The notes under the pieces: model-generated
What the model saw: only the letters and a program-made list of their open reading frames with translations
Databases searched by the model: none
What the model was told of the DNA's origin: nothing
NCBI GenBank assembly: GCA_964589815.1
Contig: CAZPUR010000003.1
Coordinates: 42,554-106,553 of the forward strand
DNA from: an uncultured Pseudomonadales bacterium
GTDB taxonomy: Bacteria; Patescibacteriota; Microgenomatia; UBA1400
Direction of reading: 5' to 3'
DNA length: 64,000 nucleotides
Program-made: the position numbers and the translations under genes
Shown here: positions 21,816 through 42,245 of the stretch, in pieces
How the letters are laid out: every line of letters starts with the position of its first letter
Numbering within the stretch: the first letter of the stretch is position 1

Positions 21816-22298
21816 ATGCCAAGATCAGGAAGAATTAGGAAACAATTATTGATTCCAGATCCGATTTACGGTAATCGCCAAATAATGCGTTTGGTTAATC
21901 GAGTGATGCAAGATGGCAAAAAACAAATTGCCTTTAAAGAGGTGTATCAGGCTTTAAAGATTGTTAAACAAAAGACTAAAACTGATGAGCCAGTAGAAGT
22001 TTTTCATCAAGCTTTGGAAAATATTAAACCCAATTTAGAGGTCAGGTCGCGAAGAGTTGGCGGGGCTGCCTATCAAGTCCCCATGCCTGTTAAAGGTGAT
22101 CGCCGAGAGGCTTTGGCCATCAGGTGGTTAATTTTTGCCGCTCGCAAAAGACCTAACAAGGAATATCATAGCTTTAGCGAAAAATTGGCAGCGGAAATGA
22201 TCGATGCTTCTAAAAATGAAGGTGGGGCGATTCAGAAAAAACAAGAAACCCAACGTATGGCCGATGCCAACAAAGCCTTCAGTCATTTCCGATGGTAA
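21816..22298 (+). CDS. rpsG: 30S ribosomal protein S7 (uS7)
   Basis: MPRSGRIRKQLLIPDPIYGN ... RVGGAAYQVP family pattern; str-operon position. Confidence 0.95.
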   Translation: MPRSGRIRKQLLIPDPIYGNRQIMRLVNRVMQDGKKQIAFKEVYQALKIVKQKTKTDEPVEVFHQALENIKPNLEVRSRRVGGAAYQVPMPVKGDRREALAIRWLIFAARKRPNKEYHSFSEKLAAEMIDASKNEGGAIQKKQETQRMADANKAFSHFRW

Positions 22299-22750
22299 AA
22301 ATAATCAAATTAATTTTTTCTATTTTTCTTTGCCAACTGGTAGGCTTAATTGGTTCTGTCTTTACCACCCCGGCCATTTCCAGTTGGTATGCTTATCTGA
22401 ATAAACCCAGTTTTAGTCCACCTAATTGGCTTTTCGGGCCAGTTTGGCTGAGTCTTTATACTTTAATGGGCATGAGTTTTTATTTAGTTTGGCAAAAGAA
22501 AAATAATCAAGTTGCCATTAAAGTTTTTCTTGCCCAGCTGGTCTTAAACAGTCTTTGGTCAATTATTTTCTTTGGCTTGCGTCAGCCCTTTTGGGCCTTG
22601 GTGGAAATTATTTTCCTTTGGTTTTTGATTTTACTCACGATTTTAAAATTTAAAAAAATTTCTCGATTAGCCAGCCTACTTCTGATTCCCTATCTTTTAT
22701 GGGTCAGTTTCGCCAGCCTTCTTAATTTTTATATTTTTAAGTTAAATTAA
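22292..22750 (+). CDS. tspO: TspO/MBR-family tryptophan-rich sensory membrane protein
   Basis: WYAYLNKPSFSPPNWLFGPVWLSLYTLMGMSFYLVW is the canonical TspO signature. Five TM segments. Confidence 0.85.
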   Translation: MVKIIKLIFSIFLCQLVGLIGSVFTTPAISSWYAYLNKPSFSPPNWLFGPVWLSLYTLMGMSFYLVWQKKNNQVAIKVFLAQLVLNSLWSIIFFGLRQPFWALVEIIFLWFLILLTILKFKKISRLASLLLIPYLLWVSFASLLNFYIFKLN

Positions 22751-26833: not shown

Positions 26834-26859
26834 TGGCCCGGTTTAAGGGCCATTTTTTT
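26834..26859 (+). terminator. intrinsic-terminator-like hairpin between rpsJ and rplC (TGGCCC-N7-GGGCCA + T7)
   Basis: 6-bp GC stem followed directly by seven T. Confidence 0.55.
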
Positions 26860-28609: not shown

Positions 28610-29442
28610 AGGATTTTAAAATTTACAAACCAGTGACTGCCGGCAGAAGAAACCGGCTGGATCTTGTCAGTCGAGCCTTAAAAGTGAAGCCAGAGAAAAA
28701 ATTACTGGAAATTTTACCTAAAAGGTCAGGTCGAAACAATGCCGGTAAAATAACCGTTAGACATCAAGGTGGTCGGCAAAAAAGATTTTTGAGAAAAATT
28801 GATTTTAAACGCGAAAAACGTGGAATTTCCGCTAAAGTGTTCAGTATTGAATACGATCCTAACCGCTCAGCTAACATTGCCTTGATAGTTTATGAAGATG
28901 GAGAAAAAAGCTATATTCTGGCGCCTAAAGGACTAAAAATTGGAGCGAAAATTGAGACTGGTAAAAATGCTGATTTAAAGATAGGCAATGCCCTGCCTTT
29001 GAGAAAAATCCCTTTAGGAATGCCGATTCATAATTTGGAATTAAGCCCGGGTAAAGGGGCTCAGATAGTCAGAGGAGCCGGCACCGCCGCCCTGATCCAG
29101 TCAAAAGAAAAAAATTATGCCAGCGTCAAGCTACCTTCAGGAGAATTAAGGAAAATAAGCCTTGATTGTATGGCTACTTTGGGACAGATAGGCAATATTC
29201 ATGTTAAAGATGTATCTTTAGGTAAAGCTGGTAGAAAAAGACATCGAGGTATTAGACCATCAGTTCGGGGAGTAGCCATGCATCCTGGAGCTCATCCTCA
29301 TGGAGGCGGTGAAGGTCGGTCTGGTATAGGTATGCCCTCACCTAAGTCGCCTTGGGGTAAAAGGACTTTGGGAAAGAAAACCAGGAAAAAGAAGAAATAC
29401 TCTGATAAATATATTCTTAGAGACAGGAGAAAAAAATTATGA
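28606..29442 (+). CDS. rplB: 50S ribosomal protein L2 (uL2)
   Basis: [17 protein letters not shown] motif. Confidence 0.97.
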
Positions 29443-29723
29443 GCCGTTCATCTAAAAAAGGACCATATATTGACCAAAAACTTTTGAAAAAAGTTATGGC
29501 CCAGAAAAACTTAGCTAAAAAAGAACCGATTAAAACTTGGGCGAGAGCTTCTCAGATCCCACCTGAATTTGTTGGTCATAGTTTTAAAGTCCATAATGGC
29601 AGGACTTTTATCGAAGTTTTTATTAATGAAGCTATGGTTGGCCATCGTTTAGGAGAATTTGCTCCTACTCGAACCTTTAGGGGTCATGGTAAAGTGGTCA
29701 AAAGGGTAATAACTAAAACATAA
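29439..29723 (+). CDS. rpsS: 30S ribosomal protein S19 (uS19)
   Basis: [11 protein letters not shown] ... HNGRTF ... [11 protein letters not shown]. Confidence 0.96.
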
Positions 29724-29730
29724 AGGAGAA

Positions 29731-29834
29731 TTGTTACATTGTTACATTGTTACATTGTTGATAGTTTTTTGTAATACAAATCGGAAGGCTACTGTTAGCA
29801 ATGAAGCAATGAAGCAATGAAGCAATGAAGCAAT
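29731..29834 (+). repeat. foldback spacer: (TTGTTACA)x3 + TTGTTGAT on the 5' arm, (GCAATGAA)x4 on the 3' arm
   Basis: Units pair in register (per 8 nt: 6 Watson-Crick, 1 G.U, 1 A.A). Helix base at 29731/29833. Confidence 0.8.
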
Positions 29835-30221
29835 TTGTTAATTAAGGCGGAACAAAAATACGTTAGAATAAGCCCTCAAAAAATGAGGTTGGTGGCGACT
29901 GCGGTTAAAAACCTTGTTCCTGAAGAAGCTTTAGACAAATTAAAATTTTTAAATAAAAGAGCCGCCCAGCCTTTGGCTAAAGTTATTAAGCAGGCCTTGG
30001 CCAATGCAACCAATAATTTTAAATTAAAAAAAGAAAGCTTAAAATTTAAAAGTATTCAAATAAGAAAAGGATCAACTTATAAACGATGGAGATCAGTTTC
30101 TCGGGGTAGAGCCCATTCAATATTTAAAAGAACGAGTCATATCAGGGTGATATTGGAGAGCAAAGAGCGAAACGAAAAGAGCAAAGATGCAGATCAAATA
30201 TCAAAAAGAAAAGGCAAATAA
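29835..30221 (+). CDS. rplV: 50S ribosomal protein L22 (uL22), TTG start
   Basis: (M)LIKAEQKYVRISPQKMRLVA matches the L22 N-terminus. The TTG is the end of the last degenerate repeat unit. Confidence 0.92.
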   Translation: MLIKAEQKYVRISPQKMRLVATAVKNLVPEEALDKLKFLNKRAAQPLAKVIKQALANATNNFKLKKESLKFKSIQIRKGSTYKRWRSVSRGRAHSIFKRTSHIRVILESKERNEKSKDADQISKRKGK

Positions 30222-30222
30222 T

Positions 30223-30354
30223 GGAATTACAAATCACAAGCACCAAATATCAAATAAATTCAAAGCACCAAATTAAAAATTCTAAACGTTTTGAATTTAA
30301 AAATTTTAATTTGAATATTGTTTGGAGTTTGGAGTTTGGAGTTTGGAGTTTTCC
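30223..30354 (+). repeat. foldback spacer, ACCAAAT/ATTTGGT family copy C1, with (TTTGGAG)x4
   Basis: GGAATT..(A)GTTTTCC closing pairs, AAATTCAAA/TTTGAATTT core. Shares AATTACAAATCACAA (15 nt) with 33910-33924. Confidence 0.7.
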
Positions 30355-30371
30355 GACAGAAGGGAGGCAAT

Positions 30372-31718: not shown

Positions 31719-31797
31719 AAATAAGTTCAAAAGTTCATTAAGTTCATAGAGTTAATAGTAAAAAATTACTCATAACTTGTTGAGCTCATAACTAATT
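31719..31797 (+). repeat. foldback spacer, GTTCATTAAGTTCAT family copy A1
   Basis: Alignable to 34454-34547 and 41368-41463. Ends ...ATAACTAATT directly at the rpsQ GTG. Confidence 0.75.
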
Positions 31798-33705: not shown

Positions 33706-33891
33706 ATCGCTAAAGTTTCTAAATTTGCTAAACAGCAAAAAAAACCAAAATTTTCTAGCCGGAAGCACAACCGCTGTAAAATTTGCGGTCGACCCAGGGC
33801 CTATATTAGGCTTTTTGGCCTTTGCCGTTTATGTTTTCGTCAAATGGCCCATAAAGGAGAATTACCAGGGGTAACTAAAGCCAGCTGGTAA
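33706..33891 (+). CDS. rpsZ: 30S ribosomal protein S14 type Z (uS14), apparent ATC start
   Basis: Absent from the ORF track. Own translation: (I)[60 protein letters not shown]. 61 codons, CxxC..CxxC, collinear with Zn-type S14. No ATG/GTG/TTG in frame after the stop at 33688-90. Confidence 0.85.
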
Positions 33892-34034
33892 GCTTTAAAG
33901 AAATGACCAAATTACAAATCACAAATTCCAAACAATATCAAAACACCAAATTCAAAATCCAAAACTGTTTTGAATTTGAATATTTGAATTTAGGATTTAT
34001 TTGTCATTTGGTATTTGGTGCTTGGAATTTAAGC
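33892..34034 (+). repeat. foldback spacer, ACCAAAT/ATTTGGT family copy C2
   Basis: Base pairs GCTT/AAGC (33892-95 / 34031-34), ACCAAAT/ATTTGGT (33906-12 / 34013-19), and further pairing along the arms by manual tracing. Confidence 0.75.
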
Positions 34035-34054
34035 ATTAGTGAACGGAGTGAACA

Positions 34055-34453: not shown

Positions 34454-34547
34454 ATAAAGAGAAATAAGAAAAGAGTTCATTAAGTTCATGGAGTTAATAG
34501 TAAAAAAAATTACTCATAACTCATAACTTGTTGAACTAATAACTAAT
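34454..34547 (+). repeat. foldback spacer, GTTCATTAAGTTCAT family copy A2
   Basis: GAGTTAAT/ATTACTC top stem and GTTCAT units opposite ATAAC units. Ends ...ATAACTAATT at the rplF TTG. Confidence 0.75.
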
Positions 34548-36700: not shown

Positions 36701-37986
36701 ATCGCATTCTTCAGCCCATTATCAACGCCTTTAAGGTTTCCGAACTGAGAAAGAAAATTGTTTTTACCTTGCTAATGTTCATTGTTTTCAGGTTGACAGC
36801 CCATATTCCCGTTCCTGGAGTTGACCTGGAAGCTTTAAAAATGCTTTTTTCCCGTAATCAATTTTTAGGCCTTTTAGATATTTTCTCTGGCGGTACTTTA
36901 ACCAATTTTTCCATTATTGCCATCGGCCTTTCTCCCTATATTAACGCTTCCATTATTTTACAGCTTTTAACTATGGTTTTCCCCAAATTAGAAGAATTAA
37001 GTAAAGAGGGTGAATTAGGAAGAGAAAGAATTAATCAATACACTCGTTTTTTAACCATTCCTTTAGCTATTTTTCAGTCCGTGGGAATGATGGCGATTTT
37101 AAAAAAGCAGCAGATTTTTACCAGCTTAAATTTTCTCAATCTGGGTTTAATTGTGGTAACCATGACCAGCGGTTGTTTATTTTTAATGTGGTTAGGAGAA
37201 CTGATTACCCGTTATGGAATTGGTAACGGTATTTCTTTATTGATTTTTGGTGGGATTGTGGGTCGTCTACCGGTTTCTTTAGCGCAAACAGTTTCTTTAG
37301 TGGAAACAGTTAGTTTTTTTAATCTCTTGGTTTTTGTGGTTATGGCGATTGGGGTTATCGCCGCCATTTGTTTTGTCAATGAAGCCCAAAGGCAAATTAC
37401 AGTTTCTTATGCCCGCAGGGTTCAGGGCCGAAAGATGTATGGCGGTTCCAGTACTCATCTGCCTTTAAGAGTAAATCAAGCAGGAGTTATTCCTATTATT
37501 TTTGCTGTTTCTTTGGTCTTGATTCCCAATATGCTGGCCACTTGGTTGCAGACCTTGCCTAATCAAAAACTGGCCAATTTGGCCGTTTTTATGGCTCGGC
37601 TTTTTGATCCTCAAAGCCTTTTTTATAATCTTTTTTACTTTCTACTGGTAATTGCTTTTACTTATTTTTATACCGCCGTCACTTTTAATCCTGAAAAAAT
37701 CGCCGAAGAAATTAAAAAACATGGCGGTTTTATTCCAGGCATTAGACCCGGCAAACCTACGGCCGAGTACCTGAATTATATTTTAACCCGGATCACTTTG
37801 GCTGGCGCAGTTTTTTTAGGTCTGGTGGCGATTTTACCTTCTCTAGCCCGAGTTTTAACCGGCGTCACCACCATGATGATTGGCGGCACTGGTATTTTAA
37901 TCGTGGTTTCAGTCATTTTAGAAACCAGCAAATCTTTGGAAGCTCAACTTTTAATGAGAAATTATGATGGATTTTTAAAGGAGTAA
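36697..37986 (+). CDS. secY: preprotein translocase subunit SecY
   Basis: 429-aa polytopic protein with SecY motifs ([23 protein letters not shown]). Confidence 0.96.
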
Positions 37987-38136
37987 ATTTTCAATTTTCA
38001 AATCCCAATTTTCATTGAATTTTCAAATCCCAATTTTCAAACTGCATTTAAAAAGATCAAAAAAGTTTGAGAATTAAAAAATTGTAAATTAATTATTCAT
38101 TGTAAATTGAAAATTGTTAAATTGAAAATTAAAATT
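37986..38136 (+). repeat. foldback spacer between secY and adk with (ATTTTCAAATCCCAATTTTCA)x2
   Basis: 37986-38001 pairs with 38122-38136 (15 bp, one bulged C at 37992) by manual pairing. The helix base joins the last nt of the secY TAA to nt -1 of the adk ATG. Confidence 0.75.
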
Positions 38137-41367: not shown

Positions 41368-41463
41368 AAAAGAGAAATAAGAAATAAGTTCATTAAGTTA
41401 TTAAGTTAATAGTAAAAGAAAAAAATTACTAATAACCAATAACCTGTTGAACCAATAACTAAT
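41368..41463 (+). repeat. foldback spacer, GTTCATTAAGTTCAT family copy A3
   Basis: GTTATTA pairs perfectly with TAATAAC where copy A2 has GTTCAT/ATAAC with a bulged C. Ends ...ATAACTAATT at the rpsM TTG. Confidence 0.75.
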
Positions 41464-41883: not shown

Positions 41884-42245
41884 TGGAAAGAAAAGCTAGA
41901 ATTGAGAAAGGCAGAATTTATATCAATGCTACTTTTAACAACACTTTAATCACGGTGACTGATGATAAAGGGAATACCATTGTTTGGGGTTCAGCAGGAA
42001 CGGCTGGTTTTAAAGGAGCGAGAAAATCAACTCCTTTTGCCGCCATTAGTGCCATAGAAAAAGTTATCAAAAAAGCCACCAGCGCTGGTCTAAATCAAGC
42101 CCAGTGCTTTATTAAAGGGCCAGGTTCGGGAAGAGATGCAGCCTTAAGGGTTTTAAGAGGCAGCGGTATCAGAATTTCTATGATTGCCGATGTTACTCCT
42201 ATTCCTCATAATGGCTGCCGACCTAAGAAAAGGAGAAGGGTCTAA
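41883..42245 (+). CDS. rpsK: 30S ribosomal protein S11 (uS11)
   Basis: [18 protein letters not shown] and [13 protein letters not shown] motifs. Confidence 0.96.

Follow-up and report, generated by a model that had tools for sequence, protein, structure and literature searches.

The window, a stretch of 64,000 nucleotides (nt) from an uncultured bacterium of the Candidate Phyla Radiation (CPR; Microgenomates), contains the str/S10/spc/alpha ribosomal protein gene cluster at 21-45 kb. We investigated the junction between rpsS (ribosomal protein S19) and rplV (L22), where a long hairpin built from tandem repeats lies between a Shine-Dalgarno (SD) sequence and the start codon of L22. The following features, all on the forward (+) strand, make up the junction.

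29439-29723 (+): rpsS coding sequence (S19) with the stop codon TAA at 29721-23, from the open reading frame (ORF) list, with Pfam Ribosomal_S19 found on the identical gene in locus L161.
29723-28 (+): SD sequence AAGGAG, overlapping the S19 stop codon by one base and single-stranded in the predicted fold; locus L164 has GAGGA at the same place.
29730-29759 (+): tandem array of the 5' arm, ATTGTTAC x3.8, 100% perfect by Tandem Repeats Finder (TRF) and a repeat search.
29730-29771 (+): 5' strand of the helix, in 7-bp blocks parted by A.A mismatches at 29736, 29744, and 29752.
29772-29781 (+): apical loop of 10 nt in the predicted fold.
29782-29826 (+): 3' strand of the helix, in which 29788-90 form a 3-nt bulge; the pair 29733-29823 has a probability (P) of 0.999.
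29797-29834 (+): tandem array of the 3' arm, AGCAATGA x4.8, 100% perfect by TRF, with the last unit unpaired.
29827-29834 (+): single-stranded linker GAAGCAAU from the helix base to the start codon, unpaired with P 0.55-1.0.
29835-30221 (+): rplV coding sequence (L22), with the start TTG 29835 placed by N-terminal conservation.

The S19 stop codon, the AAGGAG, and the TTG were each found where a first-pass annotation of this DNA had located them. TTG 29835 is the sole possible in-frame start of L22, because an in-frame TGA at 29826-28 bars any earlier one. The N-terminus encoded from this codon, LIKAEQKYVRISPQK, agrees with those of relatives, and its first 14 codons differ from those of locus L164 by six synonymous and no non-synonymous changes. 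Judged by this comparison, the N-terminus from TTG 29835 is translated. The first-pass annotation had also noted that no SD adjoins the TTG, and we likewise found none, nor any alternative in-frame start of L22 with an SD of its own. The internal ATG 29883 also has no SD, and the public calls of L22 (P0001, 112 aa; NCBI, JGI, and Logan) nevertheless begin there, 16 codons late. These calls are almost certainly wrong; the miscall probably arose because L22 truly starts at a TTG without an adjacent SD. The spacer is identical in three further assemblies of the same strain (JGI 3300031551 and Logan SRR9706179 and SRR9707468; 99.97-100% identity), and this identity across four assemblies rules out an assembly artefact. 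The nearest named genomes are those of Candidatus Blackburnbacteria and other Microgenomates, with 54-61% L22 identity.

RNAfold predicted a 97-nt hairpin at 29730-29826 with a free energy of −36.7 to −41.2 kcal/mol, depending on the flanks folded with it. Its z-score was −5.5 for a segment of 136 nt and −5.7 for one of 117 nt, and none of 200 dinucleotide shuffles folded as well; a helix between the SD and the start, as drawn in the first-pass annotation, is thereby confirmed (z ~−5.6). The helix consists of 39 bp, of which 30 are Watson-Crick and nine are G.U pairs, and contains three A.A 1x1 mismatches placed 8 nt apart (29736/29820, 29744/29812, and 29752/29804). Two registers are possible, since the 3' array is longer than the 5' array by one unit. 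The register of the first-pass annotation, with the 3' arm ending at 29833 and one nt before the TTG, is off by one repeat unit; it is 5.3 kcal/mol worse and has P ~0.001. The favored helix ends at 29826 (P ~0.999 for 29730-29826 in the partition function) and leaves 8 nt (29827-34) before the TTG. The sense strand folds with −36.7 kcal/mol versus −15.4 kcal/mol for the antisense strand. All of the non-Watson-Crick pairs of the hairpin are G.U, at six or more independent positions, and none is A.C, which modestly favors maintenance at the RNA level. No promoter-like site and no terminator-like site (a G+C-rich stem with a U tract behind it) was found in the hairpin region (29724-29834), whose tail is AAUUUGUUAAUU. 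A hand-found TTGTTA-17-TGTAAT was rejected as an internal promoter because it fails the criteria for one. No Rfam family matched the window at its gathering score; the only matches were to miRNA precursors at chance level (E 0.2-0.3), far below that score.

The linear gap from the end of AAGGAG (29728) to TTG 29835 is 106 nt. When the helix is skipped, the path from the SD to the UUG consists of A29729 and the 8 nt of GAAGCAAU, that is, 9 unpaired nt in the predicted fold. AAGGAG is unpaired with P 0.73-1.0 and the first base of the UUG, U29835, with P 0.86. The spacing between GGAG and the start codon in the window ranges from 4 to 13 nt, and 9 nt is the commonest single value (S10, S19, L15, and the gene at 42245); canonical SDs such as GGAGGT precede EF-Tu, S11, and RpoA. 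AAGGAG occurs 71 times in 128 kb (both strands), or ~1 per 1.8 kb per strand. Therefore, a perfect copy in the 6-nt 5' flank of the hairpin is unlikely to have arisen by chance (~0.3-0.4% by estimate).

The same SD could instead serve a mini-ORF of 11 codons that begins at UUG 29739 (MLHCYIVDSFL, stop at 29772-74); translation of this peptide would melt the helix and thereby free the L22 start or couple it. Its linear SD spacing of 10 nt is acceptable and it ends in the apical loop. However, UUG 29739 is paired with P of at least 0.99 in a helix of ~−37 kcal/mol, and UUG 29835 is exposed at an equivalent distance. The mini-ORF is probably a by-product of the 8-nt repeat and is not conserved, as locus L164 has no such ORF and the hairpins of loci L165 and L167 have no SD. 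We regard this explanation as very improbable. The units of the 3' arm each hold an ATG as well, which gives mini-ORFs MKQ*; by hand translation, the last one (MKQFVN*) runs from ATG 29825 to TAA 29843-45 and overlaps the start of L22. The mini-ORFs in both arms are probably by-products of the repeat units.

Split translation initiation regions are known from phage T4 (Nivinskas et al. 1999; Malys and Nivinskas 2009), in which a hairpin cuts the SD-start spacing of genes 38 and 25 from 22 to 5 nt and from 27 to 11 nt, respectively, gene 25 being located at the 26-25 intercistronic junction (PMC3014915). The precedent invoked by the first-pass annotation is documented. In both systems the linear gap is too long and a stem-loop restores the distance (5 and 11 nt in T4 and 9 nt at L22), the site is intercistronic, and neither the SD nor the start is paired, at L22 in the predicted fold. 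Five of the six features of this type of site were examined at L22. Four are present in silico, namely an SD too far from the start in linear terms, a stable self-contained stem-loop, a functional spacing, and accessibility of the SD and the start; conservation among relatives is absent. The T4 hairpins remove only ~16-17 nt, whereas that of L22 comprises 97 nt (39 bp) of perfect 8-nt tandem repeats. The T4 sites are conserved in T-even phages and known from mutagenesis and probing, while the L22 site was found in silico in a single strain whose sister does not have it. The host of the L22 site is, moreover, a cellular CPR bacterium, and the gene encodes an essential ribosomal protein.

We consider the chance about even that L22 is initiated from the helix base through the old SD, in a split site like those of T4 genes 25 and 38. 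The 97-nt hairpin would be a recently expanded self-complementary insert, of a class that colonizes operon junctions in this Microgenomates lineage, and would have landed inside a pre-existing compact module of rpsS stop, SD, and rplV start. The insert would loop itself out and leave the module spatially contiguous. Because of this looping out, the 30S subunit could still reach AAGGAG and the UUG, pairing with the former and setting UUG 29835 in the P site. It may either bind de novo or remain on the mRNA once S19 has been terminated at the UAA, which overlaps the SD. An S19-terminating ribosome need not melt the helix, because its 5' base lies 6 nt past the S19 stop codon. In this proposal the hairpin is not a purpose-built device, and what we infer from the model is the continued use of AAGGAG by ribosomes at L22.

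The origin of the insert can be traced by comparison with relatives. The first-pass annotation had suggested looking for relatives that lack the insert and have an SD next to the start, and the closest one, locus L164 (83% L22 identity), is of this kind (TAA-GAGGA-TTAGATG-ATG). Its junction reads ACC TAA GAGGA TTAG ATG ATG TTG ATT AAA, with the SD immediately behind the S19 stop and separated from the start by 4-7 nt. Pairwise alignment of the window with L164 leaves a gap of ~99 nt precisely between the SD and the start codon. All other Microgenomates with short S19-L22 spacers (0-7 nt) have no SD at the junction. In a neighbor-joining tree of L22, which is a weak tree from one short protein, the window and L164 are sisters. 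The SD is, on this comparison, a shared derived trait that is older than the hairpin, because the sister has it whereas the other short-spacer relatives do not, and the alignment places the addition of ~99 nt between the ancestral SD and the L22 start. The insert is flanked by AATTGTTA (29729-36) and AATTTGTTA (29832-40), which we considered as a candidate target-site duplication; AATTGTTA itself belongs to the tandem array. Searches of genomes, metagenomes, and proteins found no relatives with an L22 identity between 83% and 100%.

Loci L165, L167, and L177 form a clade (84-92% L22 identity) with hairpins at the same junction (z −4.8, −5.0, and −5.4, respectively). These hairpins have the same design of tandem-repeat arms as the window, and that of L165 has the same periodic 7-bp blocks. 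However, their repeat units differ (ATTATTAG, TTAGAGTT, and TGACTAA), and none has an SD, so that L164 has the SD without the hairpin and these three have the hairpin without the SD. In tests for covariation, the four hairpins could not be aligned (consensus energy −3.4 kcal/mol), and the comparison of L165 with L167 (92% L22 identity) gave only one compensatory pair and six to seven broken ones, although each alone folds with z ~−5. A common origin of the window hairpin and those of the L165 clade is unlikely, as hairpin-free lineages lie between them on the weak L22 tree. A blastn-short search found no second copy of the S19-L22 hairpin in the 64 kb; a dispersed repeat family of the REP (repetitive extragenic palindromic) or MITE (miniature inverted-repeat transposable element) kind was rejected because the hairpin occurs in the window only once.

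Repeat-built hairpins are present at about ten junctions of this operon cluster. Besides S19-L22, the spacers concerned are L3-L4, L22-S3, L29-S17, S17-L14, L24-L5, L5-S14, S14-S8, S8-L6, and L36-S13; the 8-nt unit is found at S19-L22 alone, and the other junctions use other units. We surveyed 73 expanded ribosomal protein spacers from ~35 Microgenomates loci. Significant S19-L22 hairpins (z of −2.6 or lower; at most 3 of 200 shuffles as good) were found in L003, L004, L005, L095, L099, L165, L167, and L177. The sole case like the window is L095, whose hairpin (z −2.6) has GGGAGG at its 5' base and 8 nt before the AUG. An enrichment of SDs at the 5' base of hairpins was not seen across the 73 spacers; a significant hairpin with an SD there was limited to the window and L095.

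These comparisons bear on the alternative that the SD is a relic of an L164-like ancestor and the hairpin a neutral or selfish product of slippage or duplication, L22 being initiated without the SD. Ribosomes finishing S19 would then cross the helix base in hairpin-bridged coupling, or the A/U-rich start region would be bound in the manner of S1. Many of the points that speak for this alternative also weigh against a functional split site. The surveyed spacers are mostly filled by hairpins with flanks of 0-10 nt and no SD. At the S19-L22 junction the hairpins of L003, L004, and L099 lack an SD, as do those of L165, L167, and L177, which persist across a clade of 84-92% identity; in the window itself there is no SD on either side of the hairpins of L3-L4, L29-S17, S8-L6, and L36-S13. 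Because most analogous hairpins have no SD on either side, an SD is not needed for translation downstream of them. In L083 and L007, an SD after the S19 stop is followed by inserts that do not fold significantly (z +0.4 and −0.4), and these stranded SDs look like relics. Relatives with spacers of 0-7 nt do without an SD, which implies coupling, and only ~21 of 75 crude ORFs of the window (~28%) have one.

The arrangement of SD and hairpin is carried by the same strain only and is not conserved among close relatives. The perfect (100%) repeats imply that the expansion was recent, so that retention of the SD would say little about its current use; AAGGAG could be a relic in which decay has not yet set in. 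Rapid change of such arrays is seen in another species, in which a TAACTAA heptamer array directly before the L23 ATG has four copies in L168 and five in L169 and L170. These arrays evolve by rapid slippage, because the copy number is polymorphic between assemblies whose loci are at least 99.7% identical. The geometry alone is not evidence of selection, because any self-complementary insert in a module of SD, spacer, and start yields it. The 39-bp helix is ~6x the length of a T4 hairpin, and the split-site model presumes that the 30S subunit could house it between the SD duplex and the P site. Finally, the G/U bases at 29836-39, which include the second and third bases of the UUG, pair weakly with 29717-20, forming a 4-bp closing helix inside the S19 coding sequence.

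Several observations nevertheless argue for the use of the SD across the helix and against a relic. The SD is a perfect 6-mer, its effective path to the start is exactly the 9 nt typical of this genome, and the weak UUG start, which would normally be helped by an SD, has no adjacent one. The identical arrangement persists in four assemblies from a natural population in front of an essential gene, and L095 provides a second hairpin with an SD at its 5' base. The efficiency of coupling drops steeply with the distance between stop and start, and scanning to a nearby start in vitro needed an SD (PMC12548453). The S19 stop and the L22 start resemble such pairs in being an ancestral coupled pair that the helix would keep spatially close; however, known coupling decays within tens of nt of linear distance (PMC12548453). 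Since linear distance limits coupling, even initiation without the SD would need the helix to bridge the gap; therefore, folding of the hairpin is functionally relevant on either account. We judge a relic SD rather unlikely, though it is the main rival of the split site. The T4-like principle proposed by the first-pass annotation thus stands in its geometry in silico, with the 9-nt path and the unpaired SD and U29835, and is weakened by the many sibling hairpins without an SD.

The abundance of hairpins in the cluster suggests a role at the level of the transcript, in which the position of the SD would be incidental. The hairpin may be an element for mRNA processing, stability, or the setting of expression, such as an RNase III-type cleavage site, a 3' stabilizer punctuating the polycistronic message, a brake on L22 and the downstream genes, or a structure that interferes with the termination of S19. 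RNase III processes intercistronic hairpins, for example in rpsO-pnp. The length of the helix and its sense-strand specificity are in line with this role, and interference with termination is conceivable because it begins so close after the S19 stop; in work by Liang and Deutscher from 2015, E. coli REP hairpins less than ~15 nt from a stop codon reportedly could stall terminating ribosomes. However, cleavage of the stem would part the SD from the start and leave L22 with an SD-less leader from the 3' arm. Ribosomal proteins are needed in equal amounts, so that strong differential control of S19 and L22 is not expected. Neither the sequences nor the positions of the hairpins are conserved between species, and the absence of terminator- or promoter-like signals and of Rfam matches also speaks against such an element. 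Overall, this role appears quite improbable.

The hairpins without an SD might also reflect a general mechanism, in which Microgenomates use SD-independent, hairpin-bridged ("shunt-like") reinitiation across the helix base between ribosomal protein cistrons. Tolerance of this kind would let hypervariable tandem-repeat hairpins build up between essential genes, the copy number of the arms would tune coupling, and weak UUG, GUG, or AUC starts would be preferred after such helices. S19-L22 would be the single case in which the ancestral SD is also kept at the helix base. We hold such a general mechanism to be improbable. To our knowledge, transfer across the base of a long helix has not been described in bacterial operons; it resembles the ribosome shunt of cauliflower mosaic virus (CaMV) in eukaryotes.

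Other known systems share parts of the arrangement. A further precedent in favor of a split site is E. coli thrS, where a long hairpin stays folded while the 30S subunit makes room for it (Sacerdot et al. 1998, discussed in PMC3936740). This is likewise a discontinuous 30S site around a long hairpin; however, the hairpin of thrS separates an upstream single-stranded standby region from the SD, not the SD from the start, and is a regulatory operator for ThrRS. Palindromes such as REP, BIME (bacterial interspersed mosaic elements), and MITE-like elements are stem-loop inserts between operon genes, and other spacers of the window do form multi-copy families. In contrast to these elements, the S19-L22 hairpin occurs just once in the 64 kb, and its arms are internal tandem repeats with no fixed consensus. 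The short tandemly repeated repetitive (STRR) heptamers of cyanobacteria are similar short tandem repeats. TAACTGA tandem repeats abut the start codons in ribosomal protein operons of Beggiatoaceae and are also known from cyanobacteria and Bacteroidetes (PMC4679880). As in these cases, the junction has perfect arrays of 7-8 nt in a ribosomal protein operon that end at or near the start, usually in place of an SD; AGCAATGA x4.8 ends at 29834, directly before TTG 29835, which has no adjacent SD. However, the known repeats use one genome-wide unit in direct orientation without hairpins, whereas S19-L22 has two complementary arrays of a unit specific to the junction.

The TAACTGA repeats at starts in Beggiatoaceae (PMC4679880) are the nearest described phenomenon, and in the literature searched we found no description of repeat-built, fast-evolving hairpins at many junctions between ribosomal protein genes in CPR bacteria. 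The structure at S19-L22 is real and striking in silico; a split ribosome-binding site (RBS) is a plausible proposal, and the hairpin belongs to a broader class at operon junctions that is apparently undescribed. Were the SD to work across the 39-bp helix, the split-RBS principle would reach far past two T4 genes with hairpins of ~17 nt, into an essential gene of a cellular organism, and the 30S subunit would be shown to cope with very long inserts looped out between the SD and the P site. A simple rule is offered by this model, namely that only self-complementary inserts survive inside compact, coupled operons. The junction hairpins also bear on the balancing of ribosomal protein synthesis in reduced CPR genomes. 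Gene finders and RBS models built on a linear distance from SD to start fail at L22, and S14 seemingly has no canonical start.

The conserved N-terminus of S14 (~33713-33718) is preceded by the ATC that closes an ACTAATC x4.7 array. The non-ATG starts of the cluster (29835, 30372, 31798, 34548, and 41464) all lie directly after repeat-built hairpins, usually as AAU|UUG; the start is TTG in L22, S3, L6, and S13 and GTG in S17. At ~17 junctions where no hairpin is present, non-ATG starts do not occur (hypergeometric p ~0.003, by hand calculation).

The spacer L22-S3 (30222-30371) also folds into a hairpin specific to the sense strand (−38.0 versus −24.1 kcal/mol), in which a perfect GTTTGGA x4.6 array on the 3' side pairs with a degenerate 5' arm of 7-nt periodicity. 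Here the SD, GGGAGG, is located 3' of the hairpin, 4 nt before the TTG. This layout recurs in L165 with a different unit, while the L22 and S3 genes of L164 overlap instead. The L22-S3 spacer is similar to that of S14-S8 (33895-34054), and further spacers of the cluster are related to one another. Those of L29-S17 (31719-31797), S8-L6 (34454-34547), and L36-S13 (41371-41463) are 85-94% identical, L24-L5 (32941-33091) and IF1-L36 (41120-41253) have 76 nt in common at 100%, and S3-L16 (31029-31068) has the same 34-nt A-rich leader as the latter two. A module resembling the L29-S17 family is present at the L4-L23 junction of the species mentioned above (L168:4440-4530, L169:4433-4530, and L170:4402-4530). 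This pattern suggests that the spacer families are duplicative or mobile modules that bring their own pre-start sequence.

The motif AAUAACUAAU or tandem (U)AACUAA stands right before starts in the window (34520-34547, 41437-41463, and 31770-31797) and in spacers of L002 and L168, and it recurs at different junctions in different Microgenomates genomes without an SD there. Its units are similar to the TAACTGA repeats of Beggiatoaceae (PMC4679880), and it could be a signal for SD-independent initiation. The SecY-Adk junction (37978-38136) was considered as a second case of SD, hairpin, and TTG. It was rejected because the true start of Adk is ATG 38137 (MYIIFYGPEGSGK) and the repeat region folds with a z of −1.2. 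An AAGGAG lies there just before the SecY stop (37984-86), with ~150 nt of A/U-rich 7- and 14-nt repeats up to the Adk ATG, and it may be another stranded SD. The S10-L3 spacer contains a terminator-like hairpin, TGGCCCGGTTTAAGGGCCA and then T7, at 26834-26859 inside the operon, which could be an attenuator. A gene of the TspO/MBR family (PF03073; Pfam, on the identical locus L161) is located at 22292-22750 between rpsG and fusA in the str operon.

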